Positions 8,065 through 27,016 of a DNA stretch of 64,000 nt are shown here, piece by piece (position 1 is the first letter of the stretch; every line of letters begins with the position of its first letter). The notes beneath the pieces were generated by a model, which made no database searches, was not told the DNA's origin, and saw nothing but the letters and a program-made list of their open reading frames with translations. The stretch comes from a virus, in the IMG/VR virus record IMGVR_UViG_3300021375_001810; one strand, 5' to 3'. Made by a program: the position numbers and the translations under genes.

Positions 8065-8066
8065 TC

Positions 8067-8642: not shown

Positions 8643-8654
8643 AAAGGTAGAATA

Positions 8655-9788
8655 ATGCGTATTGAACAAGATATAAAACTTGACTACAAAGATGTTCTGA
8701 TTAGACCTAAACGATCCATACTAGGTAGTCGCAAGGAAGTAAACTTAGATCGTAAATTTACATATAGGAATTATAATCCACCATTTCCAGATAATTCCGC
8801 TGAATATCATTATAGTGGTATTCCAATTATTGCAAGTAACATGGATGGTGTCGGTACAATGGAAATGGCAGACACACTTGCACAACAAAACATCCTAACT
8901 TGTCTTGTTAAAACATATAGTGAGGACGAACTTGTAAATTACTTCAACGGTGACGTACTAGTTAATAACAACAGAGTAGAACGTACAGAGTATGTTGCTA
9001 TGAGTATTGGCATTACAGATAATGATTATAGTAAGTTCAAAGAAGTATACGAACAAGTTGGATATAAATTAAAGTATGTTTGCGTTGATGTAGCAAATGG
9101 CTACTCAGAAAGGTTTGCAACATTTGTAAGAGGGTTGCGTAATAATTATCCACATATTGTTATTATTGCAGGCAACGTAGTTACAGGAGAAATGACGGAG
9201 GAATTGATTCTTGCAGGAGCAGATATTGTTAAGGTTGGCATTGGTCCTGGTAGTGTTTGTACTACTCGGATACAAACTGGTGTGGGGTATCCGCAACTAT
9301 CGGCGGTTATTGAATGCGCCGATGCGGCACACGGTCTCGGTGGTCATATTATCGCTGACGGCGGATGTACTTGCCCTGGCGATGTTGCCAAGGCTTTTGC
9401 CGGAGGCGCTGACTTTGTTATGCTGGGAGGTATGTTAGCAGGACACGACGAAGGCGGTGGTGAAGTAATTGTAAAGCAATTTGAAACAAACGAAATTATT
9501 CAAACACAGAAAAAAATTGTACAAGAAAAATATGTACAGTTTTACGGAATGAGCTCAAATGCCGCAAACGAAAAACACTTTGGTGGATTAAAAGAATACC
9601 GTAGTAGCGAAGGACGAGAAGTATTGGTTCCATATCGCGGCAAGGTAAAGCACACAATACAAGACCTATTAGGCGGTGTAAGAAGCACTTGTACCTATGC
9701 AGGTGCAGTAGGACTTAAACAACTCAGTAAGTGTACTACATTTGTACGTTGTACACAACAGTTTAACGCGGTTTACGCAGGAAAGTAA
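8655..9788 (+). CDS. guaC: GMP reductase
   Basis: [42 protein letters not shown]. Confidence 0.96.
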
Positions 9789-9792
9789 TATC

Positions 9793-10830
9793 ATGGATTT
9801 AAGTATTTTATATAGCGGACAAGTTTATCTTTTCCTAATTGTATTTGTAATGATGATTGCAGGTATGATAAAAGAGAACGACTTGTTCAAAGACATCTTC
9901 TGTTTCTTTGAACAGAATTTAAAAAGTAAGAAAGCGGTAGTTGCTATTGTAAGTGCCCTAACAGGACTACTACCTATCAAAGGTCGTGTTACAGTTAGTG
10001 CTGGCATGTTAGACACACTTGCACCCGATAAAGGGTGTTGTGGCCGAGAAAAGTTTGGACCAATTGATTATGTAAGCACACACCACTACTACTTTTGGTC
10101 ACCACTAGAGAAAACAGTTATTCTGCCGATGGCGGCGTTCGGACTGTCTTATGGTGCATTTATGAGTATGATGTGGCCATTGCTTGCTGTAAGTATTGCT
10201 TTTATTCTCGGCTACTTGATATGGGGCGTTAAAGAAAGTGATGTTCAATTACAGGATTGCGGAACAGAAATTAAAGTAAGTCGTATCACACGTTATGTAT
10301 TTCCATACATTGCAGGCGTAGTTGCTATTGTAGCTGGCGTAGACTTTATGTGGTCATTTGGATTGCTTACATTATATTACATGTTTTGTACAGCAACGTT
10401 TGATATTAAGAAGTTACTAGGTTACGTTGACTGGAAACTTATAGGCTGGGTAGCTCTTATTATTGCTCTAGCTAACTTTGCTGTCTCTAACACAGAAGCA
10501 ATTAAAACAGGATTAGAAAGTACAGGATTGGACATTAATACCCCGCTTGGCTTTATTGGTCTTAGTGTGTTTAGTTTCTTAGGTGCATTTGCACTAGGAA
10601 GCAGTTCACGCTTTGGTGCCATCACAGTGTTGATGTCAAGTATATATGGATTGGAGTATCTTCCTTGGTTCTTTGCAGTAGACTTTGTAGGCTATCTAAT
10701 TAGCCCTATGCACAAGTGCGTAGCAATTGGTATGCTGTACTTTGGAACTAAGTTGAGATATTACATTACTATATTAGGCTTATGGGGTGGATTGGTAATC
10801 GCCACCGCTGGGTTGACATTACTGTTCTAA
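9793..10830 (+). CDS. Multi-pass inner-membrane transporter-like protein
   Basis: About 10 hydrophobic segments with internal pseudo-repeat (WSPLEK / ISPMHK); possibly ion-transporter superfamily. Confidence 0.6.
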   Translation: MDLSILYSGQVYLFLIVFVMMIAGMIKENDLFKDIFCFFEQNLKSKKAVVAIVSALTGLLPIKGRVTVSAGMLDTLAPDKGCCGREKFGPIDYVSTHHYYFWSPLEKTVILPMAAFGLSYGAFMSMMWPLLAVSIAFILGYLIWGVKESDVQLQDCGTEIKVSRITRYVFPYIAGVVAIVAGVDFMWSFGLLTLYYMFCTATFDIKKLLGYVDWKLIGWVALIIALANFAVSNTEAIKTGLESTGLDINTPLGFIGLSVFSFLGAFALGSSSRFGAITVLMSSIYGLEYLPWFFAVDFVGYLISPMHKCVAIGMLYFGTKLRYYITILGLWGGLVIATAGLTLLF

Positions 10831-10916
10831 GAGTGTACACTTAATAGGATAGAGGTAAGCACTAGGTTGTGCTTACTATTTTAATAACTTTTTTATAATT
10901 TATTTAAGGAGATAAT

Positions 10917-11504
10917 ATGAAAAATTTAATAATCGCAGGAATACTTGCAATTTTTGCAACAACTACTGTTAGTGCAGATGATTTTGATTATACAGAAGTA
11001 AACACTTTCGTAACTAAAGACAATTGGACCTTTGGTGTAAGAGAGTATGCTGATAAAGATTACTCTCAGCGTATCTTAAGATATGACTTTGAAGGAAATC
11101 CATATCGTTTAGAGTATAGAAAAATTGATCGTGCAGGCGTAGGCGAAGATTGGATTCGCTTTCAAGTCAAGCAGATTAAAAATGGAGCGTTCTTTTTCAA
11201 CTCAAGATTTGAACATAGATCAAGAGAAGGTAGAGAAAACGTTATGCGTTATCGCCCACAGTTTGGTTTAGAAGCACAAGGACAGCCTAACTTATTGTTT
11301 GGTTCACCGTTCTTAATCTTTGAACCACATGTACAATATACGTATGAAGGTAGTAATTTAGATTACAGCCATTTACAAACGTTTATAGGTACAAAATACA
11401 AGTTTGGATCATTCTCAGTGTCGCCTTTTGTTGAAGTCGATTTTGACGATGATTTTAAGAAAGATACAGCATTCTTTGGGGTTGACTTTAAACTCAATCT
11501 ATAA
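10917..11504 (+). CDS. Outer-membrane beta-barrel (small porin-like)
   Basis: Signal peptide (..TVSA/DD), alternating strands rich in Arg, C-terminal FGVDFKLNL. Confidence 0.65.
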   Translation: MKNLIIAGILAIFATTTVSADDFDYTEVNTFVTKDNWTFGVREYADKDYSQRILRYDFEGNPYRLEYRKIDRAGVGEDWIRFQVKQIKNGAFFFNSRFEHRSREGRENVMRYRPQFGLEAQGQPNLLFGSPFLIFEPHVQYTYEGSNLDYSHLQTFIGTKYKFGSFSVSPFVEVDFDDDFKKDTAFFGVDFKLNL

Positions 11505-11531
11505 TATACTTGTATTATAAATGATAAATAA

Positions 11532-11631
11532 ATGTGTAGGGAGATTGATTCTCCTTACATATTTTTAAATAAACTGAAACGCCGAAAGGGTTTCAATAGT
11601 TAACTTGCTTATTAAAGGAGGAAACATTATG
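11532..11631 (+). promoter_or_regulatory. ROSE-like RNA thermometer leader of hsp20
   Basis: Three hairpins; the last has CUUGCUU (11604-11610) pairing with SD AAGGAGG. Confidence 0.6.
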
Positions 11632-12090
11632 ACAAGACTAACTACCTTAGACATCCCATCACTACATAGAGCTACTATCGGCTTCGATAGAATTTTCAGC
11701 GAGCTAGAACGCCAGTTTGAAAATAGCCCTAATAAGAATGGATATCCACCATACAACATTGCACAAATCAACGAAGATGAGTATATGATCTCATTGGCTG
11801 TTGCCGGCTTTGGTATGGATAATCTTTCAATTGAAAAGGATAACAAACTTTTAACAATTGAAGGTACGGCTCCTAAAGGAGATGAAGACGTTAATTACCT
11901 ACATAAAGGTATTGGCGGACGCAACTTCCGTAGGGAGTTCACACTTGCTGATCACGTAGAAGTGAAAAGTGCAGGCCTTGAACTAGGTATGCTAAACATT
12001 CATCTAGTACGTGAAGTTCCAGAAGAACTACAGCCTAAGAAAATTAAGATCAATGAAGGTCTTACTATTGAAGGCGAAACAGGCAAGTAA
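11629..12090 (+). CDS. ibpA: Small heat shock protein Hsp20 (IbpA-like)
   Basis: IGFDR, YPPYNI, LAVAGF, YLHKGI, F.R.FTLA, P.KI.I. Confidence 0.95.
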   Translation: MTRLTTLDIPSLHRATIGFDRIFSELERQFENSPNKNGYPPYNIAQINEDEYMISLAVAGFGMDNLSIEKDNKLLTIEGTAPKGDEDVNYLHKGIGGRNFRREFTLADHVEVKSAGLELGMLNIHLVREVPEELQPKKIKINEGLTIEGETGK

Positions 12091-12138
12091 ATTGTCTAGG
12101 GGGAGTGGGAAACCCTCCCCCACTTAACGGAGAAAGAA

Positions 12139-12450
12139 ATGAGCGAAGAAGTAATTTTAGATGTAAAGATAGATGAGAAATTATCTAAACAAATATCTGA
12201 GCCACCAAAGTTTAAAGTAGTATTACTGAATGATGATGTTACGCCTATTGATTGGGTAATAAAAGTTTTAGTAGAAATATTTAGACATTCAAACGAGAAT
12301 GCTGAAAAAATAACATTAACCATTCATACCGATGGTTCAGGCGTTGCTGGCATATATACTTATGAAATAGCAGAACAGAAAGCACTTGAAGCACAAGACC
12401 AAAGTAGAAGTCAAGGCTTTCCATTACAAATTAAACTAGAGAAAGAGTAA
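12139..12450 (+). CDS. clpS: Clp protease N-degron adaptor ClpS
   Basis: KVVLLNDDVTP, IHTDG, YEIAEQK, GFPLQ. Confidence 0.93.
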   Translation: MSEEVILDVKIDEKLSKQISEPPKFKVVLLNDDVTPIDWVIKVLVEIFRHSNENAEKITLTIHTDGSGVAGIYTYEIAEQKALEAQDQSRSQGFPLQIKLEKE

Positions 12451-12452
12451 AT

Positions 12453-13019
12453 ATGAGCCTAAAAGATCTTACATGGGAACACCATAAAGACGCAGAAAGA
12501 CAAGAATTTGTAAAAGTTATGATGAGTGGTAAGATCAATCCAGAATTATACGCAATCTACTTATGGAATCAACATAAGAAGTATGACCTACTTGAAGCAA
12601 TAGCAGGAGCAAATGGCGTATTAGACGACCTTCCAGGTATCAGACGTAAACAAGAAATTGAAAAAGATTTCTTTGAGTTGTGGACTAAGAAAGAAGAAGA
12701 GCCACCGATACTACCTAGTACAGAAAAATACATCGAACATATGCGTAGTATAATGGCTGACCCCGAAGCACTGATGGCACACATTTATACGTTACACATG
12801 GGCGACCTAAGTGGCGGACAAATGATTAAGAAACGTATTCCAGGCACGGGTAATATGTATAACTTCAAAGTTGACACACAAGAATTAAAAGAAGCCATAC
12901 GTAGTAAAATTCATGACGGCATGGCAGACGAAGCAAAGTTTTGTTTCGAAACAGCAACCAACTTATTTAAAGAACTAATGGAGTTAGACATTGAGCGTTA
13001 TATGGAACCGGTTAATTGA
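12453..13019 (+). CDS. hemO: Heme oxygenase (biliverdin-producing)
   Basis: LKDLTWEHHKDAE (proximal His), AHIYTLHMGDLSGGQMI. Confidence 0.93.
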   Translation: MSLKDLTWEHHKDAERQEFVKVMMSGKINPELYAIYLWNQHKKYDLLEAIAGANGVLDDLPGIRRKQEIEKDFFELWTKKEEEPPILPSTEKYIEHMRSIMADPEALMAHIYTLHMGDLSGGQMIKKRIPGTGNMYNFKVDTQELKEAIRSKIHDGMADEAKFCFETATNLFKELMELDIERYMEPVN

Positions 13020-13683
13020 ATGCCAAGATGAAATTATAAGCATCTTTGACAGTCGAGCAAAAGAAATAGAAGAACCAGGGTTATCACATTTTAATCAACC
13101 AGAGAATGGTTGGATTAATCGTGTGTGGGCAAATGATAGTGTTCGTAGAGCACATATTGATGTTGTAGATGCACGTGAGTCTAGAGGCTTATGGATGATG
13201 CATGTATGTTGTTTTCCAGTTCTTAACAATGATGCGCCAATATACGGCTTTGATGTTATTGCAGGCAAAAACAAAATGACTGGAGCCTTCCATGACTTTA
13301 GTCCTAGTTCTAATCCAGACCATCCTATGATTGATGGATACAGAGAAAGTGTTGAAGAATTTATTCCTAGCAAACAAAGACAACTACCTGAATGGGCAAC
13401 AAATATTTTTACAGATAAAATGCTTGCTGCAGGCAATGTTAAAACAGAGGAAGAAGCAGTTGCTATTATTGACATTGCTATTGCTAATCTTAATGCTTGG
13501 TTTGACGAAGTACCATTATCCGACGGTGACGGTAATTGCGAGATAGTTGCAGCAAGTCAGAACTATTACTGTCATAACCAGCAACAAAATCCACATACGC
13601 CTAACGTTATGAAAACACTTGGTCTTGCAGAAGAAGATGTAGATAAGTTCTGCACAGACATGCTGTTTCCTAAAATAGTATAA
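12991..13683 (+). CDS. pcyX: Ferredoxin-dependent bilin reductase, PcyX/PcyA-like
   Basis: RRAHID, MMHVCCFP, PIYGFDV, R.LPEWA.IF, YCHNQQQNPHT. The Asp57/His71/Asp88 spacing matches the PcyX-type triad as recalled. Overlaps hemO. Confidence 0.85.
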   Translation: MSVIWNRLIECQDEIISIFDSRAKEIEEPGLSHFNQPENGWINRVWANDSVRRAHIDVVDARESRGLWMMHVCCFPVLNNDAPIYGFDVIAGKNKMTGAFHDFSPSSNPDHPMIDGYRESVEEFIPSKQRQLPEWATNIFTDKMLAAGNVKTEEEAVAIIDIAIANLNAWFDEVPLSDGDGNCEIVAASQNYYCHNQQQNPHTPNVMKTLGLAEEDVDKFCTDMLFPKIV

Positions 13684-13713
13684 ATACTATTAATAATTTA
13701 GGAACAACTAATA

Positions 13714-15312
13714 ATGCGTTACAGTGACTTTAAACTTATAGAATCAAAAAAATTAGACGAGTCGGCTAATGCCGGACTAGAAGCTCAACATGCAATACAT
13801 GATATTGATGCTATTAGCAATGCTGTTGCTACTATGGACCCAACAGTTAAGTCTAACGTAGTAAGTAATTTAACAAGTCTTGCTCAAAAGGTCAGAGACT
13901 TTGTTACTAAGAATATTAAGAAAACTCCAGAACCGCAAACAGAAGCATTAGGTAGTGAAGACCAAGAAGCAGAATCTGCATTACAAAGATTAAAAGCCGA
14001 TATTGCTACTATTGAAGCAAGTGATATTGATGAAAACATAAAAGCATCTTTCTTAGCAAGTTTAAACGAAACATTAGACAAACTTACTAAAGCATCTGAA
14101 AACATAAAAACATCAAGAGACTCAGCACGTACTGAGCGTGACGAAGCAATTAACTTTGTTAAAGACGTTACAGGTGTATTAGTTACACTAGGTAACAAAG
14201 TACAAGGATATACAGCAGACTTAGACACAAGTGATATGACAGCAAGAGATAGATCTTCATACAAGAAAATGTCTATTAACGCAGATAAGTTTACTAAAAC
14301 TCTAAAGCAGGCACTGTTTGGAAAAATACTTGATATGCAGGAAGAAAGTGATGTTAAGGCTGAAGAGATTAAAGAGTTTTTACAAGCCTGTGTTGATGGT
14401 AAAGTAATTAACATGCTAAGACTTATTTCTGTAGACAGAGGTAATGTTAAAGATTTTGTAAACCCAAACTATCAAAAAGTATTTGATGTATTTGTAAAAG
14501 AAAACATCTTTAGTTATGCGCCTGGCACAACATCAGGTGCTATTGGTCCAGGCGAAATGGCATTGTCAATGATGGGTAACCCTGCAGAAAAGGGCAAGAA
14601 GGGCGATCTAAAGATTGGCGATGAAGAAGTTGAAATTAAAGCAAGTGCAAAGACCGGTGGGCGTTTCAATAGTAAGGCTATTGCTAAAGCAACTACAGGT
14701 TGGCAAACATGGTCAAACAAAATTAACGAAATTATGCAATCAGCACCAAAGGGTGCAACTATTCCAGTAATGCAAAAAGATGGAACATTCCAAAAAATTG
14801 ATGCACAAAGTTACGATGGTAACCAATACAATGTTATTAAAGGCAAGGCCAAAAAAGGTAGCAAGTATAACTGGAACAAGAAAGGCTTTGATGCACTAAA
14901 CAACGAAGTGTTAGAACCGTATGCAAATAAAAAACAAACTGCTGACTTGTTTATTTCAACAATTAAAGCTCTTGTACAAAACTATGAGAAACTAAGTCAA
15001 GAACAAGCAGGTAATTCACATCATAAACCATTTAAGCCAGCAGAACTAATTATTGATGCAATTAATAATGATGGTACTGTTGACATGAAGAAGATGAATG
15101 TTGCATACTCTAAAATTGCATATGCAAGTTATCACTTAGCAGACGGCATTACAACTGTTATGTTACTTAGAACAGATACATTAGACTACACTATCTTTAA
15201 AGATGCCGACGATTTAGTTGGACAAATGAATAACGATAGGGTTATTACTGGTGGCGGCTTCAATTGGAATGACGACCAGCAAACACCTACCCCTGGCTAC
15301 ACAGCCGCATAA
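13714..15312 (+). CDS. Probable virion-associated protein with PD-(D/E)xK-like motif
   Basis: TATAAATA at 13679; N-terminus MRYSDFKLIES; coiled coil; GPGE...KGDL..G..VEIK. Confidence 0.55.
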   Translation: MRYSDFKLIESKKLDESANAGLEAQHAIHDIDAISNAVATMDPTVKSNVVSNLTSLAQKVRDFVTKNIKKTPEPQTEALGSEDQEAESALQRLKADIATIEASDIDENIKASFLASLNETLDKLTKASENIKTSRDSARTERDEAINFVKDVTGVLVTLGNKVQGYTADLDTSDMTARDRSSYKKMSINADKFTKTLKQALFGKILDMQEESDVKAEEIKEFLQACVDGKVINMLRLISVDRGNVKDFVNPNYQKVFDVFVKENIFSYAPGTTSGAIGPGEMALSMMGNPAEKGKKGDLKIGDEEVEIKASAKTGGRFNSKAIAKATTGWQTWSNKINEIMQSAPKGATIPVMQKDGTFQKIDAQSYDGNQYNVIKGKAKKGSKYNWNKKGFDALNNEVLEPYANKKQTADLFISTIKALVQNYEKLSQEQAGNSHHKPFKPAELIIDAINNDGTVDMKKMNVAYSKIAYASYHLADGITTVMLLRTDTLDYTIFKDADDLVGQMNNDRVITGGGFNWNDDQQTPTPGYTAA

Positions 15313-15313
15313 C

Positions 15314-15372
15314 TGTCAAAATATTAACACTTGCATCTGTCAAATTTTTGCAAAGGTGTTACTTATTTACAC
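15314..15372. promoter_or_regulatory. Candidate CRP/Clr-family operator boxes upstream of csgF
   Basis: TGTCA-N6-TAACA (15314-15329), TGTCA-N6-TGCAA (15338-15353), GTGTTA..TTACAC (15356-15372). Confidence 0.4.
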
Positions 15373-15461
15373 ATAGTTAATATCACCACTCCCTAGATAA
15401 ATACAACGAGAAGGATATATTATAGAATAAGAGTGTGAGGGCTCTAACTTCGGAGATTATT

Positions 15462-15953
15462 ATGACAAAATATGGTTTAGGGGCGATCCTTGTGTTACTA
15501 ACTTTTACTAATGCAGGGGCAACAGAGATTCTATGGGGTTTTAAGAATCCTGCTTTCCATTATGGTAACGGTTATTCAACCCATGTACTAAGTGTAGAGC
15601 AACTACAATATAATCGTAAAAAAGAGATTGCTGATTTTCAAAGATCAGAAGCACTAAGGATTGAAAGAGAACTTGAGAATACAACACTCAACAAGTTCTT
15701 AAAAAACTTAGAGTCAAGAATTTACGCACAGATATCAAAACAGATGGTAGACAGTATGTTTAGCTCATGTGATGATGCTGCAGCGGCCGCTGGAACTTGT
15801 ACACAAGCAACAACAGGTACAGCAACAATAGAAGGTTCTACAATTACGTGGATCAGAGATCCACTAACAGGATCTATTACCCTTCAAATATTAAATGAAG
15901 ACGGTACGTATACGGAAATAACAATTCCTGGATCAGGGGAGTTTGGATTTTAA
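15462..15953 (+). CDS. csgF: Curli assembly protein CsgF-like
   Basis: Signal peptide then ATEILWGFKNPAF; F...LESRIYAQIS; C-terminal G..TEITIP; adjacent to csgG. Confidence 0.85.
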   Translation: MTKYGLGAILVLLTFTNAGATEILWGFKNPAFHYGNGYSTHVLSVEQLQYNRKKEIADFQRSEALRIERELENTTLNKFLKNLESRIYAQISKQMVDSMFSSCDDAAAAAGTCTQATTGTATIEGSTITWIRDPLTGSITLQILNEDGTYTEITIPGSGEFGF

Positions 15954-16892
15954 ATGATACGTTCTCTTTTAATTATTGCTATGACATTGTTAGCAACTGG
16001 GTGTGCCATGACCCCCTCCATGGTAGATTATTCAAAAGAGTCCAGTTGGAAGCCAACTGTACAGACAGCTCCTTTAGTAAATGAACTAAGAGATGTCCCT
16101 GAATTAAACGGCCCAGTAATAACAATAGCAGTTTATAACTTTTTAGACAAAACAGGTCAAAGAAAACCAGCAAGTAATATTGCTAATCTTTCTTCGGCAG
16201 TTTCTCAAGGCAGTGAAGTATGGGTAATAAAGGCATTACAAGAGGCAGGTAACGGCACGTGGTTTCAAGTTGTAGAGCGTGTAGGCCTAGACAATTTAGT
16301 TAAAGAGCGTCAACTGATTCGTTCCACAAGGGAACAGTATGAACGCACAAAAGAGAAAGGACCAACCCCTTTAAAACCTATGCTATTTGCAGGTTTACTT
16401 TTAGAGGGCGGCATTGTAGGTTATGATAGCAATGTTGCAGCAGGGGGTGTAGGAGCCAGATATTTAGGCATTGGAGCACAAACTGAATATCGAATAGACA
16501 CAGTAACCGTGGTGATGAGAATTGTATCAGTAAGTACCGGCAAGGTTTTATTATCTGTCGCTACCGAAAAGGTCATCGCATCGTCACGATCCGGAGCGGA
16601 CGTATTTAAGTTTTTAGATATGGGTACAAAAGCTGTCGAAGCGGAGAGTGGATACTCTGTAAATGAACCAGTCAATTATGCCGTGAGAGCAGCCATTGAG
16701 GCAGGCATAATTGAAATAATAAATCAAGGCGAAAAGGAAGGGCTTTGGAAGTTCAAGGAACAACGGGTAACAGGAACTGAAGCAGAAGTAATAGAGAACA
16801 CTAATGAAGGGGTCTCTATTTATTGTGAAACAGAAGACAAATGTTACACCTCTGAGGAACTGGACAAAAAAGCACAATCTTTAGACCGATAA
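15954..16892 (+). CDS. csgG: Curli secretion channel CsgG (lipoprotein)
   Basis: Lipobox ATGC; IAVYNFLDKTGQRKP, WFQVVER.GLDNLVKERQLIR, EGGIVGYD, NEPV. Confidence 0.95.
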   Translation: MIRSLLIIAMTLLATGCAMTPSMVDYSKESSWKPTVQTAPLVNELRDVPELNGPVITIAVYNFLDKTGQRKPASNIANLSSAVSQGSEVWVIKALQEAGNGTWFQVVERVGLDNLVKERQLIRSTREQYERTKEKGPTPLKPMLFAGLLLEGGIVGYDSNVAAGGVGARYLGIGAQTEYRIDTVTVVMRIVSVSTGKVLLSVATEKVIASSRSGADVFKFLDMGTKAVEAESGYSVNEPVNYAVRAAIEAGIIEIINQGEKEGLWKFKEQRVTGTEAEVIENTNEGVSIYCETEDKCYTSEELDKKAQSLDR

Positions 16893-16898
16893 AGAGGG

Positions 16899-17615
16899 AT
16901 GATTATGAAAAAGATATATACAGGACTCACAGTTCTATTATTATCTAGTTTTGTAAACTTTGCGTCCGCTAATGATATCTATATCGAGCAAGTAGGTGAT
17001 ACTTTAGATTTAGATATTGTTCAGGACGGTACAGGAAATAAAATTGGTGATGCAGTTACAGGCGTAGACCTGGACGGTGCATCCATGACATTTAGTATAT
17101 CTCAAGTTGGAAATACCAACATCGTTTCAGCACTTATCAAAGGTGCATCGTACACTGGTACGTGGGACGTAAATGGTAGTGGTAACGATATCGACTTCAA
17201 ATGTTCTAGTACATCTACAGGTAACTGTGAAGATGTAACAGCAACAATTGACATCGATGGTGACAACACTAACTTAGATTTATATATAGGTGAAAATGGT
17301 GATGCTGATGATACTAATGTTACGTTAGACATTGACGGAAATGGAAACATTCTGAATATGGCTTTAGACGGAACAGACCTGGCGCTAAACTACACTATTG
17401 ACAATAGTGCTAACAGTGGCGGAAGTTCAACACTAGCAAACACCTTTACGATTAATGTTGATGATTCAGGCTTAACTGGACACAATCAAACTATTAGTCT
17501 AATTGGTGGTGGTAATACAGTAGACATCACACAAAGTGGTACAGCTCAAGATCAAACAATAAGTCTTGACTTGCAAACTAGTGGTAGTGATATCGACATT
17601 ACACAGAGCGACTAA
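16899..17615 (+). CDS. Curlin-repeat protein (CsgA/CsgB-like), short
   Basis: Signal peptide; repeated Q.G..N / .G..N beta-arc units; ends GSDIDITQSD. Confidence 0.75.
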   Translation: MIMKKIYTGLTVLLLSSFVNFASANDIYIEQVGDTLDLDIVQDGTGNKIGDAVTGVDLDGASMTFSISQVGNTNIVSALIKGASYTGTWDVNGSGNDIDFKCSSTSTGNCEDVTATIDIDGDNTNLDLYIGENGDADDTNVTLDIDGNGNILNMALDGTDLALNYTIDNSANSGGSSTLANTFTINVDDSGLTGHNQTISLIGGGNTVDITQSGTAQDQTISLDLQTSGSDIDITQSD

Positions 17616-17617
17616 AG

Positions 17618-18742
17618 ATGCAGTTTGCTAGGTATATCCTCGCTGCACTACTTTGGTTACCAATTACAGCATATGCAAATATTGGACAAGTAGCTGATCA
17701 AAAGGGTAATGGTGCGATTGAAAGAGGTAGAGATTTAGTTGGTAGTGGTGTTGGTACTGAAGTACAAAGTATGGATGCTGCTGTTACTACCAACGGAACT
17801 ATGCGAATCGACTTTATTGACGATACTCGAGTAGATATCACACAACATAGTAAACTTATTATTGACGAATTTGTGTTTGATCCAGCGAATGATATCGGAT
17901 CACTAAGTCTAAAAGCGTCATTAGGAACAGTAAGGTACGCATCTGGACAAATTGCAAAGAAGTATAAGCAAAATGTTAAGATTCGTACGCCAAGTGCAAC
18001 AATCGGTGTACGTGGTACTGATTTCGTAATGGTTGTGGACGAAGTTGGCGGAAGTTTAATTACGCTTCTACCAAGTTGTGACTCTGCTGGAAACTGTTAT
18101 ACTGGAGAGATAACAGTGGAAACAGACGCAGGAATGGTTATTATGAATCAAGCATTCCAAGCAACGGCAACACAGACTTCTTCACAGCCTCCGACGCCGC
18201 CCAGACTGTTAGACTTACCAGAAGATATGATTGATACTCTTTTAATTGTAAGAAAGAAAACACCATGGGTTGAAGACGAGGAAGAATGGAAAAAGGCAAA
18301 GAAACAAACAGCAGATATTTTAGGTATTGATTATTTAGAGTTTGATGGATTAGATGTTGAAGTATTTCAAGACCAAGAAGAAATATGGCACACTGAACTT
18401 GACGAAACAGACTTTATGTTAGGCGACTTATTAATAGATATTTTAGAACAACTTAATATTCAATTAGCAGAACTATTTAAAGATGAATTTGAAAAACAAA
18501 AAACAGACTTTAGCGGAGTTAAGTTAGGGTTTGATGCAACAACAGGAATAAGAATTACAGACGTAGATCCATCATATCTATTTGAAAGATATGACAATAT
18601 AGGAACTAACAATGTATACCTAAAGTTGCGTAAAGGAAGCGGAGGATATACTATCAATTTACAACAGGGCGATTTCGAATTAATAGATTATAGAATCGGA
18701 ACTGGTCCTAATAGCATTGACATATATCAAAATAGCCAATGA
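17618..18742 (+). CDS. Secreted FecR-domain protein
   Basis: Signal peptide; F.DDT.V......L.IDEFVFDP, G..RYASG, TPSATIGVRGTDF. Confidence 0.85.
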   Translation: MQFARYILAALLWLPITAYANIGQVADQKGNGAIERGRDLVGSGVGTEVQSMDAAVTTNGTMRIDFIDDTRVDITQHSKLIIDEFVFDPANDIGSLSLKASLGTVRYASGQIAKKYKQNVKIRTPSATIGVRGTDFVMVVDEVGGSLITLLPSCDSAGNCYTGEITVETDAGMVIMNQAFQATATQTSSQPPTPPRLLDLPEDMIDTLLIVRKKTPWVEDEEEWKKAKKQTADILGIDYLEFDGLDVEVFQDQEEIWHTELDETDFMLGDLLIDILEQLNIQLAELFKDEFEKQKTDFSGVKLGFDATTGIRITDVDPSYLFERYDNIGTNNVYLKLRKGSGGYTINLQQGDFELIDYRIGTGPNSIDIYQNSQ

Positions 18743-19920
18743 AGATAACAGGAACACATTTAGGAATATTAATATTAGTAATGTACTTTGCGGCGCAGAC
18801 TGTTGACGCTAACGAGATTTACATCAACCAGGCTGGTGATAACATTGACATGACTATTGTTCAAGATGGTGAAAATAATGTTATTAGTTCACTTACTGGT
18901 AACGCCACTAAAGCCACAATCTCCGGTAATAACACAAGCACAACGTTTACACAAACAGGCGATGACAATGATATAGGCGTGTATATGAGTGCTGGCAATG
19001 GACAACAGACAGTTACACAAACAGGCAATACTAACTATGCTATTGTAGATTGCCACGGTAATAACTGTTCAGCAACCATTATACAAAATGGTAATAATAA
19101 TGCGGCAAATTTAGAGTTTGGTGACGGCGGTGATTACGATAACACTGGTACAATTACACAAGACGGTGACTACAATACGGCTGGTACAGAAATCAATGGC
19201 GACGACAACACTGTTGTAATGGATCAGGATGGTGACTACAATAGTATTGGAGGAATTACCAGCGCACCAATTACTGGTGATAACAATGTACTATCAATGA
19301 TACAAGATGGCGACTATATGACTTTTGAAGGACATCTTGTAGGTAGTAATAATAGTTTAACATCATTTCAAGGCGGCGGAGCCAACAGTAGTTTTATTCG
19401 TGTTAGTACAGTTGGAAGCAATAACACAGGTGATCTACGTCAAGGTAAGAAGATGGACGGATCAGTTGACGGCAATGATAGTGGTAACCATGAACAATAC
19501 ATAACAGTAGTTGGCGATGGTAATACTGTTGATACGTCACAGGTAAACAGTAACGGTGCAAGTTCAGATCATCATATGGCACATATTATAACAGGTGATA
19601 GTAACACACTAAGTCACTTGCAATATGCAGATAGTAAAAAACAAGGCTTCATCGAAATAACAGGCGACAACAATAATGTCGAACTTGAACAAAGAAATAG
19701 TGCAACTCATTTTGCTGACATAGTATTAACTGGAGACGGACATTCTGTATACGGTGAGCAACGTGGGTATGGATCGCATAATATAACAGTAGATCTAACT
19801 AACTCAGGCGGAGCATACAATATGTCAACTACACAAAATTCATCAACTGCACAAACTTACACACTAACCGGGAGTTGTGCAAATGCTAACGGATGTGGTA
19901 TTATAATTACCCAAAACTAA
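18739..19920 (+). CDS. Curlin-repeat protein (CsgA-like), long
   Basis: Signal peptide; many TQTGDDN/QNGNNN/QDGDYN repeats; Gly/Asn/Gln/Thr rich. Confidence 0.8.
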   Translation: MKITGTHLGILILVMYFAAQTVDANEIYINQAGDNIDMTIVQDGENNVISSLTGNATKATISGNNTSTTFTQTGDDNDIGVYMSAGNGQQTVTQTGNTNYAIVDCHGNNCSATIIQNGNNNAANLEFGDGGDYDNTGTITQDGDYNTAGTEINGDDNTVVMDQDGDYNSIGGITSAPITGDNNVLSMIQDGDYMTFEGHLVGSNNSLTSFQGGGANSSFIRVSTVGSNNTGDLRQGKKMDGSVDGNDSGNHEQYITVVGDGNTVDTSQVNSNGASSDHHMAHIITGDSNTLSHLQYADSKKQGFIEITGDNNNVELEQRNSATHFADIVLTGDGHSVYGEQRGYGSHNITVDLTNSGGAYNMSTTQNSSTAQTYTLTGSCANANGCGIIITQN

Positions 19921-19968
19921 ATAAATACTACTGACAGCAGAAGGCAGACTGCTAGAAAGTAGGGCGTA

Positions 19969-20451
19969 TTGATAGATCCATTCACCGCCGTAGCCGCGGC
20001 AACCACAGCGTTTAATACTGTAAAAAAATTCGTACACGCTGGTCAAGAATTTGAAAATTGTATGGGCCAAATGGGCAAGTGGTACACTAGTGTATCTGAC
20101 TTCCGTAAAGGTCAGCAGATGCAAAAGAATCCTCCAATATTTAGAAAACTATTAGCCTCAGGCTCAGTTGAAGAAGAAGCACTCAATCTCCTTATCCACG
20201 AAAAGAAAATTATGGAGATGGAAAAAGAACTTCAACAAATGCTAAACATACGTTTTGGCTTTGGAACTTGGGACGAGCTAAAAGAAATGCAACGTAAGAT
20301 ACGTGCTAAACGTGAACGTGAAGTATACAAACAAGCAGAAGCAAAGCAAGCATTAATAAACGGTGTTGCTATTACTTTATTAATAGGAGCATTAGTTAGT
20401 ATGCTTGGAGGATTGTTTTACTTTATATTAAAGGCCAAAGGAATGATTTAA
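19969..20451 (+). CDS. Hypothetical protein with C-terminal TM helix
   Basis: TTG start; (M)IDPFTAVAAA N-terminus; ATAAATA at 19921. Confidence 0.7.
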   Translation: MIDPFTAVAAATTAFNTVKKFVHAGQEFENCMGQMGKWYTSVSDFRKGQQMQKNPPIFRKLLASGSVEEEALNLLIHEKKIMEMEKELQQMLNIRFGFGTWDELKEMQRKIRAKREREVYKQAEAKQALINGVAITLLIGALVSMLGGLFYFILKAKGMI

Positions 20452-20452
20452 A

Positions 20453-20674
20453 TTGAAATATGTCTACAAGAATTTAGTATATGATAATAGGGATACCAAA
20501 GGATTATTATATAGAGATGGTAAACTTTTGTTTATGGGAAATACTTGGAGTGGTATATTACAATTTTTAGCATACAGCAACAACGCACCTGAAGTACGAG
20601 AAATGTTTAAAGCACAACTTGAACAGCGCGAACAAATAAAATTTAAACAGCATCAAAGAGATATAGAAAAATGA
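20453..20674 (+). CDS. Hypothetical protein
   Basis: 73-aa ORF filling the operon gap. Confidence 0.5.
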   Translation: MKYVYKNLVYDNRDTKGLLYRDGKLLFMGNTWSGILQFLAYSNNAPEVREMFKAQLEQREQIKFKQHQRDIEK

Positions 20675-20889
20675 TACATGCCTTTATGTTAATTGTGTTG
20701 ATAGCAGAAGTTCAACAACCATCGCCTATGTATTTTAGGAGTATAGATGTGTGTCAATACTACGCTAAACGTATACCTCGACAGTATGGTAACTATGGAT
20801 CAAAGTATCTTGTGCCTAAAGAACACAGAATTACAGCTTATTGTAAGCCTGTAAAGGTTCAAGACGGACCTTACATATACGATCATTAA
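20671..20889 (+). CDS. Small hypothetical protein with two Cys
   Basis: MIHAFMLIV..MYFRSIDVC...AYCKP. Confidence 0.6.
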   Translation: MIHAFMLIVLIAEVQQPSPMYFRSIDVCQYYAKRIPRQYGNYGSKYLVPKEHRITAYCKPVKVQDGPYIYDH

Positions 20890-20899
20890 TAAATACTGT

Positions 20900-22951
20900 A
20901 TGACGAAGTATATCACACACTGGTCAGTAGCATTTATTACTGCCTTTATAATGATAATGTTACACTACGGTGATAGTACTGTAGTGCAAACAGCTCGGCT
21001 CAAGCAATTTGATTTACTTCAACAAACTGACGAGCCCCAACTCTCCCAAGATATTGTAGTAGTCACTATCGACGAACCAGCTATTGAAAAGTACGGTCAA
21101 TGGCCTTGGAGGCGTGATCAGATTGCAGATATAATCTGGAAGCTGCGCGAGGCAGGTGCTGGTATTATTGTAATACCTATTATGTTTTCTGAACCTGATA
21201 GATTAGGTGGAGATAATATTTTATCCGAAGCACTTGTAGATAACGGAGTAGTAATTGCACAAACAGGAACTACCTCTGTTAATAAGAATCCTGTTCCTAG
21301 AGGCGTAGCCAAAATAGGAGATCCTTTACCATACATGTTTGAATGGCCGGGGATGTTAGGACCAATTCCATTGCTAGGTGAAGCGGCAGACGGTGTAGGT
21401 GTTTTAAACACAGCACCAGAAATAGACGGTGTAGTAAGACGTGTTCCGCTCATCATGCGTATCGGTGAAGATACGTATCCTGCTTTAGCAGTGGAAGTAA
21501 TTAGGACAGCGACAGGAAATCCTAGTTATCAAGTAAAAGCGAATCAAGGCGGTATTGAAGCTGTACGTGTTCCGGGTTACCCGATTATCAAAACCGATCC
21601 TAATGCACAAATATGGTTACGTTGGAATAAACAGTTTGAAGAAATTAGTTTAGTAGACGAAGATCAATTTTGGGCTTTAGAAGGTAAGACAGTAATCCTT
21701 GGAATAACCGCAGAAGGAATTGGGGGACTTATTGCAAGTCCAACCGGACCGCAATATAATTACATACCAGCGGCAGTAACCTTACAAACAGTAATGGACG
21801 GAGATCAAATACAACGTCCATTCTGGGCACTCTTAGCAGAAATGATCACAACAGGAATCTTAGGCATAGCCCTTGTGCTAGTTGGACGTTTTGCACCTTA
21901 TTGGTTAGTTGGTACAAAGATAGTTGCATTTAGTGGAGCGTTAGTGTATGGTGCATACTATGCATGGACAAACTACTTGTATCTACTTGACATAACTATG
22001 CCGCTGGCTACTGTAATACTTGTAGGCTTACATTCTGTGTTTAATAGATTTGTAAGTGAATACCTACAAAAGCAAGAAATTAAAAAGCAATTTGCAGGAT
22101 ATGCATCACCTACTATTGTACGTATGTTACAGGAAAATCCTGCACTGATCAAAGACGGTATGAAGAAAGAAGTTAGTATATGTTTTAGTGACCTTAGAGG
22201 TTTTACTCCTTTAGGTGAAAGTTTTGGCGATGACGTTAAAGGCCTAACAAAAATAATGAATGGTTACATGGATGCAATTACACAGCCAGTACTAGACGCC
22301 GACGGTATGATTATTAAGTATATTGGTGATGCTAGTATGCATGTACACAATGCTCCAATTGATGATCCTGATCATCCTAAGAGTGCTGTACAATGTGGAC
22401 TAGATATGTTAAAAGCAGTGGAGAAGTTTAATGAAACATTACAACGAGATAACCGTCCGCCAGTGGGTATGGGTGCTGGCATTAATACTGGTTTGGGGTA
22501 CCTTGGTGAAATGGGTAGCACAAGGAGACATTCGTATGACGTTCTTGGCGACTCAGTATCAACAGCAGCAAGGATTGAATCAAAGTGTAAGGAATACGGG
22601 TGTACCTTACTAGTAGGAGACGCTACATACCAACGTACTAAGTCGGACTTCTTTTACTTAAAAATAGATGACTTAGCAGTAAAAGGAAAAACTGTCGGTA
22701 TAACAATATGGACAGTGTTAGACAATAGACGTCCGGCCTGGCGTGTAGCACAACGTAAACACGAGGATATGCACGAAGCATATAAAGCTCAAAAGTTTGA
22801 CAAAGCAATAGAGTTATGTAATACACTACATAATCATTTTGATGGCAAGATGTCTGACTATTATGATATGTGGATAGAACGTTGCAAATTCCAAAAAACT
22901 CAAGACCTACCTAAAGATTGGAATGGAGTATTCATTGCCACAACAAAATGA
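20900..22951 (+). CDS. CHASE2-domain class III adenylate/guanylate cyclase
   Basis: CHASE2 (IDE..I..YGQWPW.R, DGVVRRVP), 3 TM helices, cyclase FSDLRGFT, IIKYIGDA, GINTG, YDVLGDSVSTAARIE. Confidence 0.95.
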   Translation: MTKYITHWSVAFITAFIMIMLHYGDSTVVQTARLKQFDLLQQTDEPQLSQDIVVVTIDEPAIEKYGQWPWRRDQIADIIWKLREAGAGIIVIPIMFSEPDRLGGDNILSEALVDNGVVIAQTGTTSVNKNPVPRGVAKIGDPLPYMFEWPGMLGPIPLLGEAADGVGVLNTAPEIDGVVRRVPLIMRIGEDTYPALAVEVIRTATGNPSYQVKANQGGIEAVRVPGYPIIKTDPNAQIWLRWNKQFEEISLVDEDQFWALEGKTVILGITAEGIGGLIASPTGPQYNYIPAAVTLQTVMDGDQIQRPFWALLAEMITTGILGIALVLVGRFAPYWLVGTKIVAFSGALVYGAYYAWTNYLYLLDITMPLATVILVGLHSVFNRFVSEYLQKQEIKKQFAGYASPTIVRMLQENPALIKDGMKKEVSICFSDLRGFTPLGESFGDDVKGLTKIMNGYMDAITQPVLDADGMIIKYIGDASMHVHNAPIDDPDHPKSAVQCGLDMLKAVEKFNETLQRDNRPPVGMGAGINTGLGYLGEMGSTRRHSYDVLGDSVSTAARIESKCKEYGCTLLVGDATYQRTKSDFFYLKIDDLAVKGKTVGITIWTVLDNRRPAWRVAQRKHEDMHEAYKAQKFDKAIELCNTLHNHFDGKMSDYYDMWIERCKFQKTQDLPKDWNGVFIATTK

Positions 22952-24269: not shown

Positions 24270-24833
24270 ATGAAAGAAGGCGTACAAGTCCCGGCAGTTG
24301 ATTTTAAATATAGAGTTAGAACTGACGGACAACCAATTACGTTTGTAGATACATCAAACGGTCAAGCAAATCCATTTGAATGGAAAACTGTTACGTCATC
24401 AGAAATTTTTGATGGAAAAAGAGTTGTAGTATTTTCACTACCCGGTGCATTTACTCCAACATGTAGTACATACCAAGTACCAGGATTTGAAGAACTATAT
24501 GATCAAATTCGTAACTTAGACGTAGACGAAATTTATGTTGTTAGTGTTAACGACACATTTGTTATGCGTAAGTGGATGATTGATCAAGACGTAAAGAATA
24601 TTAAATTTATTCCAGACGGAGCAGGTGAGTTTACTCAAATGATGGGTATGCTTGTTTGTAAACCTGAGCAAGGCTTTGGTAATAGATCGTGGCGTTATGC
24701 AATGGTAGTTAAAAATGGCGTAGTAGAAAAGTTCTTTGAAGAGCCAGGACGTAACAATCATAGTGACGACAATGATCCATACGGTGAAACAGATCCGAAA
24801 AAAGTATTAGAGTATTTAAAGACTGTTGCCTAA
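24270..24833 (+). CDS. Peroxiredoxin (Prx5 type)
   Basis: VVFSLPGAFTPTCS, SVNDTFVM, GFGNRSWRYAM. Confidence 0.95.
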   Translation: MKEGVQVPAVDFKYRVRTDGQPITFVDTSNGQANPFEWKTVTSSEIFDGKRVVVFSLPGAFTPTCSTYQVPGFEELYDQIRNLDVDEIYVVSVNDTFVMRKWMIDQDVKNIKFIPDGAGEFTQMMGMLVCKPEQGFGNRSWRYAMVVKNGVVEKFFEEPGRNNHSDDNDPYGETDPKKVLEYLKTVA

Positions 24834-25376
24834 ATGAAAGTACATGAATTATATGATTGGGGTAATCTAATTACACCAGATCAGCGATTCGAAATGTGTA
24901 AAGATATTAGTAATCTTATTGCACAGGGAAAGTACTGGGATAATAGTCCTCCCTATCAGACTAACGTAAACATCTTTGGCGAGCCAGGAGAACACTGGAC
25001 TAATTTAAAGATGAGTTTTATCTGGAGTTGTTTTGCTTACATGAAACAAGAAAGACAGATAAAGAGCGTTAAGAGTTGGGGATATAGAACTAATATAAAG
25101 ACCCAAGAAAATCGTGATACATATTGGCATCAGCATGATAGACAAGGCTCTACTACAATAAGTGGAGTATACTATTTGCACCTGCCAATAGCAGAGGAAA
25201 ACGATTTAGAAACATCTGGTACAGAACTTGCACCTAATGGAATATCATCTGAGACTTATTATGCTCCATGGCGTAAAGGTAATTGGATGATATTTCCAGG
25301 CAAGACATGGCACCGTCCGGGCATACTAGCGTGTGACGAAGATAGATTTATTGTTGCCGCAGATATGGAGTTTTAA
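24834..25376 (+). CDS. 2OG-Fe(II) oxygenase-like protein
   Basis: WHQHD, ISGVYY, IFPG..WH, R. Confidence 0.7.
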   Translation: MKVHELYDWGNLITPDQRFEMCKDISNLIAQGKYWDNSPPYQTNVNIFGEPGEHWTNLKMSFIWSCFAYMKQERQIKSVKSWGYRTNIKTQENRDTYWHQHDRQGSTTISGVYYLHLPIAEENDLETSGTELAPNGISSETYYAPWRKGNWMIFPGKTWHRPGILACDEDRFIVAADMEF

Positions 25377-25528
25377 TGGGTTATCCAACACAAGGTCACA
25401 TAGCTAAAGACGTAGCAGAACTTAAGAAGCTCGTACAAGAGTGCGAATCCGAAATTGATAGAATTAAACAACTAGCCGTAAGAAACGGTGAATTAATTAG
25501 AGAAGTTTTAAAGAAATTGGAATCCTAA
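25376..25528 (+). CDS. Small coiled-coil protein (50 aa, not in ORF track)
   Basis: TAATG-coupled start; MGYPTQGHIAKDVAELKKLVQEC... Confidence 0.55.
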   Translation: MGYPTQGHIAKDVAELKKLVQECESEIDRIKQLAVRNGELIREVLKKLES

Positions 25529-25575
25529 TGGTTGACACAAGAGGTAAGATCAACTATAATAATTTTATATTATAC

Positions 25576-25652
25576 GCGGCTGTAGCTCAGCTGGATAGAG
25601 CATTGGTCTACGAAACCAAGGGTCAGGAGTTCGAATCTCTTCAGCCGCGCCA
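25576..25652 (+). tRNA. tRNA-Arg(ACG)
   Basis: Cloverleaf; anticodon arm TTGGT-CTACGAA-ACCAA; encoded CCA. Confidence 0.95.
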
Positions 25653-25675
25653 AAGAGTCTTAAGGAGGACCTATT

Positions 25676-26419
25676 ATGGCAAAACGTAGATTTAGAATTG
25701 ATGCCGGTCGATATGGCGGCGAACTTGTAATTGGTAAAATTAATGCTGACTTTGTAGAACACATGCGTGACTATGATGAATCAGATCTTATTGATACTAT
25801 AACAGGGTATGAATGGGAAGATGAAGAAATGGGCATTGCTGATGCACCTAAACCTAAGGATGAATTTTATGCTTGGCATGAGTGCGATGACATTGAACAT
25901 CTAAACAATGCATATGCTGACGGAGGCTTTGTAATTAACGAAGTTCCTGCAGATGGCTCAGATGATTTTAACTGGGACGAAAACGAAATCAATACAGATG
26001 GTTATCATCTGTATGGTAGAGAAGCATATCATGATGATGAACTTCCTGAACCAAGTGATTACCTGTCAGAAGAGGACATTGCAAATATGTTCCCAGTACT
26101 TGTATTCCACAGTGGTGAAAAAGGTGGCTTTGCATCTTACTTTGTAGAAACAGATGGCGAAGACTTTGATCCTAAGAAACTTGCATTTAGTTCTGTCGAA
26201 ACTAACGTTTCAGAAATTATCGAAAATGTATATTACGATAAAGTAGAGCTAGAAGCAGACTATGATTACAACGACACAACAGGCAAAGGATACTATGCAC
26301 AAGTAGGCTATATGAATCCTAAGTATCGTGATGATCCTAATCAATACACAGACGAGTACCTAGAAGAAGAAGGATACTGGGAGTGTTACGAGGACCATTT
26401 GCTAGAGGAAGATGAATAA
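25676..26419 (+). CDS. Highly acidic hypothetical protein
   Basis: 247 aa, D/E rich, RBS AGGAGG. Confidence 0.8.
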   Translation: MAKRRFRIDAGRYGGELVIGKINADFVEHMRDYDESDLIDTITGYEWEDEEMGIADAPKPKDEFYAWHECDDIEHLNNAYADGGFVINEVPADGSDDFNWDENEINTDGYHLYGREAYHDDELPEPSDYLSEEDIANMFPVLVFHSGEKGGFASYFVETDGEDFDPKKLAFSSVETNVSEIIENVYYDKVELEADYDYNDTTGKGYYAQVGYMNPKYRDDPNQYTDEYLEEEGYWECYEDHLLEEDE

Positions 26420-26550
26420 ATATATGCATGGGTGACACTAAAGAATTCGTGCCGTATTCCTTTTCTAAGGATTTTATATTAGTTTGTTCAATAGGACTTA
26501 ATATAGGATTTATAGTAGGTTTACTTTTATTATAATTGGAGACAAAATTA

Positions 26551-26778
26551 ATGTCAGATAAAAACGTATATGAATTTAAAGCAGAGGATATCTTTGAAGA
26601 TATTAAAGATGATCCAAACAATGTGCTAATGAATATTCCACCAGAGATATCTGAAAAGATGGGCTGGAAGGAAGGTGACGTTTTAGATATTAAACTCATG
26701 CATGACACCAAATCAATATCAATTAAGAAAATAGAAGATGCTGATGATTTGATTCCTAATTTGGAGAAAGATGTCTAA
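26551..26778 (+). CDS. AbrB/MazE-like DNA-binding protein
   Basis: [21 protein letters not shown]. Confidence 0.7.
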
Positions 26779-26986
26779 AGACGGATTACTAGAGTTAGAG
26801 GGTAAAATATTACAAGTTTTACCCAATCAAATTTACAAAGTTGAACTTGAAAACGGACACGTAATAACTTGTTATACAGGTGGTAGATTGCGTAAGAACA
26901 AGATCCGAATGATATTGAACGACAAAGTTAGGGTAGAAATGACCCCATACGATCTGTCCAAAGGACGAATTACCTTTAGATTATAA
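26771..26986 (+). CDS. infA: Translation initiation factor IF-1
   Basis: [23 protein letters not shown]....[19 protein letters not shown]. Confidence 0.96.
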
Positions 26987-26987
26987 G

Positions 26988-27016
26988 TTGACATCAGTAG
27001 TATATGATGCTATAAT
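26988..27016 (+). promoter_or_regulatory. sigma70-like promoter (perfect consensus)
   Basis: TTGACA-17-TATAAT. Confidence 0.8.

Follow-up and report, generated by a model that had tools for sequence, protein, structure and literature searches.

Curli-type secretion genes in phages have been the subject of three papers, which offer three different guesses at what these genes do. Zaragoza-Solas et al. (2020) gave the first report of csgF together with csgG in pelagimyophages and proposed "sibling capture" (PMC7029224). Buchholz et al. (2022) proposed a pore that times lysis and reported an absence of csgA/B from Methylophilales phage Melnitz (PMC9004378), the GenBank record of which annotates two curlin-repeat proteins, a FecR protein, and a cyclase. 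Wittmers et al. (2022, mSystems) described CsgF, CsgG, CsgA/B, FecR, a second CsgA/B, and an adenylate cyclase in podo- and myoviruses, reported that CsgE is lacking, and proposed superinfection shielding, aggregation, or import (PMC9599517). In that study, phage curli genes were present at every ocean station examined and were transcribed, FecR was read as an iron-dependent regulator, and CHASE2 was nowhere mentioned (PMC9599517). Here we describe a module of this kind in a 64,000-nucleotide stretch of DNA from a marine phage, IMG/VR record IMGVR_UViG_3300021375_001810 (referred to below, at its full length, as the window).

The type VIII secretion module of the window is one more example of a phage system that has already been published. 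A reading made beforehand from the sequence only had identified it as a phage type VIII secretion system with a FecR protein and a CHASE2 cyclase, and that identity stands; the roles it suggested, aggregation and superinfection shielding, stand as published proposals, since both the module and its possible roles are already in the literature (PMC7029224, PMC9599517). What appears to be new is that FecR and CHASE2 form a bacterial sensor pair that, judged from gene neighborhoods, has been joined to fiber genes only in phages. The conservation of a C-terminal motif, and the cellular controls for it, are likewise new.

Nine tightly packed open reading frames (ORFs) fill positions 15435 to 22951 of the forward strand, and the gene order given by the sequence-only reading, csgF-csgG-curlin-FecR-curlin followed by three small genes and a cyclase, is present in full:

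15462-15953 (from 15435 with a GTG start), +, csgF; Pfam CsgF, E value of 2.9e-10, above the curated cutoff; PHROG 35372, 2.3e-47
15954-16892, +, csgG, outer-membrane lipoprotein pore; Pfam CsgG, 5.1e-50
16899-17615, +, curlin-like subunit 1 (curlin 1), 238 amino acids (aa), with a signal peptide; paralogous to curlin 2, weak CsgB match
17618-18742, +, FecR-domain protein, 374 aa; Pfam FecR, 1.4e-7
18739-19920, +, curlin-like subunit 2 (curlin 2), 393 aa, with a signal peptide; Pfam Curlin_rpt, 2.3e-14; NCBIfam CsgB, 3.4e-7, and CsgA, 6.8e-7
19969-20889, +, three small genes (160, 73, and 72 aa) between curlin 2 and the cyclase
20900-22951, +, CHASE2/transmembrane/class III nucleotidyl cyclase, 683 aa; Pfam CHASE2, 3.2e-38, and Guanylate_cyc, 4.6e-17

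Parts of the module are 66 to 68% identical in nucleotide sequence to Melnitz and to Pelagibacter phage HTVC008M, and the gene order is the same. Indeed, the gene set and order are those of the pelagiphage system described by Wittmers et al., with no CsgE, CsgC, or CsgD. The differences of the window copy are minor. It has a three-gene cassette inserted between curlin 2 and the cyclase, its cyclase is of an Asp/Ser type, the histidine kinase of podovirus modules is absent in front of it, and its type occurs on a 339-kb contig, rather than one of about 140 kb, so that the genome is possibly much larger. As the sequence-only reading had noted, no csgE or csgC is recognizable: neither protein was found among the module proteins or in five related phage records by a scan in which the E. 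coli control was positive and which did not extend to the rest of the window. Both have been reported to be lacking in alphaproteobacterial curli systems as well (PMC9599517).

The module shares with the enterobacterial csgBAC-csgDEFG system the CsgG pore, CsgF, curlin-repeat subunits, and a terminal Φ-x-Φ-x-Q motif. It differs in the absence of CsgE, CsgC, and CsgD, in its longer subunits (238 and 393 aa), and in the presence of a FecR-domain protein and a cyclase within the cluster. The carrier is also different, a lytic phage, and the hosts of its known relatives lack curli genes (PMC9599517). Residues 3 to 269 of the phage CsgG align to the solved E. coli CsgG with an E value of 5e-53, and the lipobox Cys is matched (LLATGC versus LLSGC). 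An Asn and two aromatic residues have recognized roles in the constriction of E. coli CsgG; of these, the phage constriction loop keeps the Asn alone and has lost both aromatics. The csgF product is 163 aa long from the ATG, or 172 aa if the GTG at 15435 is used, and gave no relevant sequence match to solved structures, solved CsgF included.

The two fiber subunits are not equally well identified. Curlin 1 is paralogous to curlin 2 over the N-terminal part of the latter (BLASTP, 3e-11) and has no Pfam match and a weak CsgB match (NCBIfam, 0.008). Since these are the grounds for it, the label "curlin" is reasonable but weaker for curlin 1. An AlphaFold2 model of curlin 1 shows stacked strand pairs (pLDDT, 71.6); the nearest folds found with Foldseek were parallel beta-helix proteins, none of them significant, and a profile search against solved structures found nothing. 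The model is consistent with a solenoid fiber subunit and is no proof of one. The curlins may form an amyloid fiber and may be exported through CsgG.

FecR and CHASE2 genes in phages and in cells

With the FecR protein as the anchor, 71 IMG/VR loci were retrieved, of which 64 are nonredundant, and the module proteins were scored in them by tblastn. CsgF, CsgG, and curlin 1 were found together in all 58 loci having at least 2.6 kb of upstream sequence, and the cyclase was found in all 19 loci with adequate flank on both sides. The co-occurrence of CsgG, FecR, and the CHASE2 cyclase in other phage genomes, which the sequence-only reading had proposed as a check, therefore holds. In every locus the FecR gene lies between two curlin genes. 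The cyclase gene is mostly downstream, and in one clade (L015, L016, L018, and L019) it is upstream of csgF. The same layout persists in representatives that are only 35 to 50% identical, and because it recurs in 64 nonredundant phage loci, we do not attribute the arrangement to chance.

The only matches to the full-length FecR protein that were labeled as bacterial genomes were short to medium-sized contigs from a Pirellulales metagenome-assembled genome (MAG) (L074) and a Legionellales MAG (L075). L075 carries the whole phage-type module, and L074 carries the FecR-to-cyclase half, cut upstream. Both are probably phage contigs misbinned into unrelated MAGs, not cellular copies, and they were rejected as cellular homologues of the full-length protein. 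Three divergent representatives from among the top 150 matches, examined for their context, were also phage-like.

The cellular counterparts were sought through CHASE2, which is present in 177 of 301 sampled Pseudomonadota genomes. Forty cellular CHASE2 loci were taken with ±7 kb of sequence, the sole selection being enough flank. A hidden Markov model of the phage FecR N-terminal region detected a FecR-like ORF in 14 of the 40 loci, mostly abutting the CHASE2 gene, with scores of up to 100 bits, and the Pfam FecR domain was confirmed in all eight of these neighbors that were tested. As a background, five of these genomes contain 10 FecR genes in 21.8 Mb (approximately one per 2 Mb). Four of the 10 adjoin CHASE2, and in two of the five genomes the CHASE2 neighbor is the sole FecR gene. 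Such pairs are also on record: in Burkholderiales and P. aeruginosa, the partner of a CHASE2 histidine kinase is a LysM-FecR protein (PMC5192318), and a cluster in Campylobacterota contains a CHASE2 cyclase, a FecR-domain protein, a phosphodiesterase, and a TPR protein (PMC9239204). Further CHASE2 cyclases, CyaD1/D2/K, are known from S. meliloti (PMC5498481).

None of the 40 cellular CHASE2 loci contained relatives of CsgG, CsgF, or curlin. Conversely, no FecR-like ORF or CHASE2 cyclase was found within ±8 kb in any of 17 cellular csgG loci, 11 of which have recognizable curlin genes. In light of these two counts, we read the phage module as a joining of two modules that are separate in the sampled cells, with FecR and CHASE2 as a probable cell-type sensor pair, and the joining itself as apparently confined to phages. 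Wittmers et al. stated that FecR and the cyclase lie outside bacterial type VIII secretion operons; we agree, and add that the two belong together. The sequence-only reading had drawn a signaling chain from the fiber through FecR to CHASE2 and on to cAMP. Its step from FecR to CHASE2 is well supported by gene context, namely, the adjacency in 14 of 40 loci against the FecR background, the two published pairings, and the linkage in phages, and is the best-supported reading of both genes, better than the iron-regulator label under which FecR was published; the links on either side of that step stay conditional. The phage pair resembles the cellular pairs in that the gene for a secreted FecR-domain protein lies beside one for a CHASE2 transmembrane sensor, with cyclase output in those cellular cases where the sensor is a cyclase. 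It differs from them in its neighboring csg genes and in the curlin-type terminal strand of its FecR protein.

The nearest cellular relatives of the phage cyclase (E value of approximately 1e-110) offer a parallel. Directly upstream of each, on the same strand, is encoded a protein of 1,465 to 1,646 aa that begins with a FecR domain and continues with cadherin-like, Ig, and RTX repeats. The three loci, all in cellular genomes, are as follows:

L082, 8560-12954, giant FecR-adhesin protein upstream of a CHASE2 cyclase
L097, 8365-13302, giant FecR-adhesin protein upstream of a CHASE2 cyclase
L106, 8958-13625, giant FecR-adhesin protein upstream of a CHASE2 cyclase

In these giant proteins a FecR domain is joined to a surface adhesin, beside a CHASE2 cyclase. 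This suggests that FecR-like domains are periplasmic anchors of surface adhesins, which the CHASE2 cyclase may monitor.

The FecR C terminus, the FecR fold, and the cyclase residues

The sequence Φ-x-Φ-x-Q, followed by one to three more residues, closes three of the module proteins: curlin 1 (IDITQSD), the FecR protein (IDIYQNSQ), and curlin 2 (IIITQN). Just these 3 of the 104 forward-strand ORFs in the window have such an ending, for which the chance is approximately 0.003 per tail. The motif is kept in about 40 nonredundant phage loci, and in 41 homologues of the FecR protein the residues I367, I369, and Q371 are at least 90% conserved while overall identity goes down to 29%. Among cellular proteins, the ending was found in 12 of 17 curlins encoded beside csgG (4 of them by the strict pattern), against a background of 11 in 2,994 ORFs, and in none of the 14 cellular FecR partners. 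From these comparisons, the ending appears to be a hallmark of curlins that phage FecR proteins have gained. The resemblance is one of motif and not of a shared domain. We had considered the whole FecR C-terminal domain as a curlin repeat and dropped the idea, as an hhalign comparison of that domain with curlin 1 matched the last 11 columns only, at a probability of 3.5%.

The AlphaFold2 model of the FecR protein, built from a 41-sequence alignment, has a pLDDT of 80.8. It consists of a signal-peptide-like helix (residues 2 to 18), a confident beta domain (approximately residues 23 to 212), a low-confidence acidic helical linker, and a confident small beta domain at the C terminus (residues 304 to 371). 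The larger beta domain matches the periplasmic signaling domain of PupR (6ovk; Z score of 15.4 over residues 50 to 212) and a Parabacteroides anti-sigma factor (4m0n; Z score of 14.3), and this periplasmic fold is what the phage protein has in common with the FecR/PupR anti-sigma regulators. A match to a "cell surface anchoring domain," 5ix9, was at first put on the C-terminal domain; a second aligner placed it at residues 19 to 113 (Z score of 7.2), which are the front of the phage FecR domain and resemble 5ix9. No cytoplasmic anti-sigma domain or membrane helix is seen in the model, no hydrophobic segment passes the scan, and no ECF sigma gene was found in the module with Pfam. Because it has neither the cytoplasmic domain nor the helix, the phage protein, although it has the FecR fold, is no FecR-type anti-sigma factor.

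The window also encodes a TonB-dependent receptor, 18 kb from the module:

38204-40057, +, TonB-dependent receptor; Plug, 1.8e-15; beta-barrel, 5.3e-26

Lytic phages do not usually carry a gene for an outer-membrane receptor. In the first 139 aa of the receptor only the Plug domain was found, with no N-terminal signaling domain detected. The receptor is present in the nearest relative of the window, G001, and absent from Melnitz, HTVC008M, and two large contigs, all of which bear the module.

In the cyclase protein, CHASE2 covers residues 16 to 325 (Pfam), and a crude hydropathy scan finds hydrophobic stretches between residues 310 and 380. By eye, these fit the three membrane helices that a periplasm-in/cytoplasm-out topology needs. 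The catalytic part aligns to solved class III cyclases (6fht, 3r5g, and 2w01) with a best E value of 7.5e-21. The sequence-only reading had noted that the Lys and Asp specifying ATP are present and that Ser occupies the place of the catalytic Asn, and alignments to the solved cyclases and to 26 relatives bear this out: the metal-binding Asp431 and Asp477 are confirmed together with Lys473, Asp547, and Arg558, and Ser554 replaces the transition-state Asn (VSTAAR versus VNLASR) throughout its phage clade. Asp431, Asp477, and Arg558 are invariant, and Lys473 is nearly so. Asp547 goes with Ser554 in 26 phage loci and Ser547 with Asn554 in 12; Asn554 is likewise found, together with Ser, Thr, or Arg at 547, in one further divergent phage-like locus and in each of the ten cellular relatives that were compared, and the Ser/Thr547-Asn554 combination sets cellular CHASE2 cyclases apart from that of the window. 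Since positions 547 and 554 change together in an otherwise constrained protein, we do not regard Ser554 as decay.

Proposed coupling of fiber export to the cyclase and its rivals

The reading that we favor, with a confidence falling just short of even, is that phages have joined two cellular systems and that the FecR protein couples fiber export to the CHASE2 cyclase. Probably at a late stage of infection, CsgG and CsgF would form a channel in the outer membrane of the host cell, and the two curlin-like proteins with signal peptides would be exported and would stack into a beta-solenoid surface fiber. The C terminus of the FecR protein would engage the curlin subunits, or the fiber at the CsgG-CsgF exit, and the FecR domain would contact the periplasmic CHASE2 domain, such that the output of the cyclase would follow the state of fiber export. 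The cyclase may produce cAMP. The signal would have to be read by a host protein, because no protein binding cyclic nucleotide monophosphates (cNMP) is encoded in Melnitz, HTVC008M, or the two large related contigs. A more specific form of this proposal, which we think rather doubtful, makes the FecR protein an adaptor from amyloid secretion to a second messenger; its terminal strand would dock on curlins or on the nascent fiber at CsgG-CsgF, with its FecR domain acting as the switch for the CHASE2 cyclase. If that were true, the infected cell would report fiber export or assembly as a cyclic-nucleotide signal, and this would be the first assigned CHASE2 input and also the first cyclase known to be coupled to secretion, which phages would have assembled out of two unrelated cellular modules. 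The presence of a ready-made cellular sensor pair, together with a curlin-type strand, changes what merits testing and may provide a first handle on what CHASE2 domains sense.

Several observations weigh against coupling of fiber export to the cyclase. Ser at the position of the transition-state Asn may reduce or change catalysis, and mutants of mammalian cyclase in which this Asn is changed to Ser or Ala lose most of their activity. The related phages named above encode no cNMP-binding protein of their own. The link between FecR and the curlins is a short motif, only the last 11 columns having matched, and the model of curlin 1 is moderately confident only and has no significant structural match. 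In cells, 26 of the 40 CHASE2 genes are without a FecR neighbor, so that the pairing is common and not obligatory. Finally, cells infected with Melnitz did not clump in the observations of Buchholz et al. (PMC9004378).

A FecR-CHASE2 sensor that works independently of the fiber is a possibility we consider somewhat unlikely. It would respond to some other periplasmic or environmental cue, its nucleotide would time the module or lysis, and the genes would be inherited together as a block. In its favor, cells use the FecR-CHASE2 pair in the absence of curli genes, no ligand of CHASE2 has been established in any system (PMC5192318), the cyclase gene can sit upstream of csgF, as in the clade noted above, and unrelated genes can separate it from curlin 2. 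Such independence fits poorly with the position of the FecR gene, always between two curlin genes, with the complete co-occurrence in phages, and with the curlin terminal motif that phage FecR proteins appear to have gained and that cellular FecR partners are missing. The proposals of Buchholz et al. (PMC9004378) and Zaragoza-Solas et al. (PMC7029224) amount to a pore only, in which CsgG and CsgF form a gated channel that depolarizes or permeabilizes the envelope for lysis timing, or imports molecules, and no fiber is made. The lack of clumping in Melnitz cultures and the authors' failure to find csgA/B (PMC9004378) agree with this, as do the late-promoter-like motif before csgF, the missing CsgE gate, and the loss of the two aromatic constriction residues. 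Yet two curlin-repeat proteins with signal peptides are conserved in every locus (curlin 1 in 58 of 58), Melnitz included, CsgF is universal too although a bare pore does not need it, and Wittmers et al. did identify CsgA/B-type genes (PMC9599517); we therefore consider a pore without a fiber improbable.

The reading of Wittmers et al., which makes the FecR protein a regulator linked to iron or TonB that senses ferric siderophores together with a TonB-dependent receptor, seems to us very improbable. The PupR-like fold and the TonB-dependent receptor of the window would suit it. The phage protein, however, lacks the anti-sigma domain, the membrane helix, and a linked ECF sigma gene, all features of the FecR/PupR regulators, and the cellular relatives of its FecR domain adjoin CHASE2 genes. 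The reading is also poorly supported because the receptor has no detectable signaling domain and is absent from the other module carriers listed above. A last alternative concerns the product and is compatible with any of the other readings: the cyclase of the Asp547/Ser554 clade may make no cAMP and be a weak or regulatory pseudoenzyme, or make another product. The replacement of the transition-state Asn, covarying with the substrate-contact position 547, points that way. We hold it to be unlikely, as both metal-binding Asp residues and Arg558 are invariant, Lys473 is nearly so, and the whole protein is 40 to 84% identical across the clade, which is the pattern of purifying selection expected for an active enzyme.

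Upstream region, accessory genes, and genomic surroundings

One candidate expression signal lies upstream of csgF:

15396-15403, +, GATAAATA, putative T4-type late-promoter-like motif

The T4 late promoter consensus is TATAAATA. Many divergent loci with an intergenic gap have the motif NATAAATA 13 to 36 nucleotides (nt) before csgF; in the window its position is -66. As this late-promoter-like NATAAATA precedes csgF, it hints at late expression. Scans for consensus promoters and terminators did no better than on shuffled sequence. A TGT-N10-ACA box at -148 of csgF occurs in the window and its nearest relatives only, and CRP/Clr-like boxes were rejected as evidence of feedback, since most loci have neither this box nor the palindrome of another subclade and since the related phages encode no cNMP-binding protein.

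That palindrome, GGTGTAAAAT(n)ATTTACACC, is perfect in L007, L010, L011, L064, L073, and L075, where it lies approximately 90 to 105 nt upstream of csgF and just upstream of the late-promoter-like TATAAATA. At 15356 to 15374 the window has a degenerate version, in which the spacer is shorter. The palindrome might bind a regulator or fold into a hairpin in RNA. Directly upstream of csgF is one further gene:

13714-15312, +, 532-aa protein of no family, with a weak, subthreshold FUSC match

This protein is common only to the window and its nearest relative, L003, and holds the position that a histidine kinase has in podovirus modules.

The three small genes between curlin 2 and the cyclase are treated here as a movable accessory cassette and not as part of the module core, because their position shifts between loci and they are absent from Melnitz and HTVC008M. 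In L004, L005, and L011, as in the window, the cassette follows curlin 2 and precedes the cyclase; in L009, L010, L064, and L073 it lies upstream of csgF. None of the three products has a Pfam family; the 160-aa protein matches PHROG 32327, of unknown function, and has a C-terminal hydrophobic segment at residues 128 to 146 in the hydropathy scan.

Elsewhere in the window there is one exceptionally long reading frame:

51591-63248, +, single ORF of 3,885 aa, with no Pfam family at an E value of ≤1e-4

An identical FecR protein with the same neighbors is found on a contig of 339,019 bp (L076; ENA contig k141_544551), compared with 141 to 147 kb for Melnitz and HTVC008M. This contig is either a much larger relative or a concatenated or chimeric assembly. 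According to its gene calls, the regions around 8000 to 13700 and 24270 to 27000 of the window encode ribosomal protein S21, a 2OG-Fe(II) oxygenase, IMPDH, HSP20, and ClpS, along with heme oxygenase and bilin reductase, a peroxiredoxin, and an eIF-1a-like protein, so the genes flanking the module are a rich set of host-like auxiliary genes.

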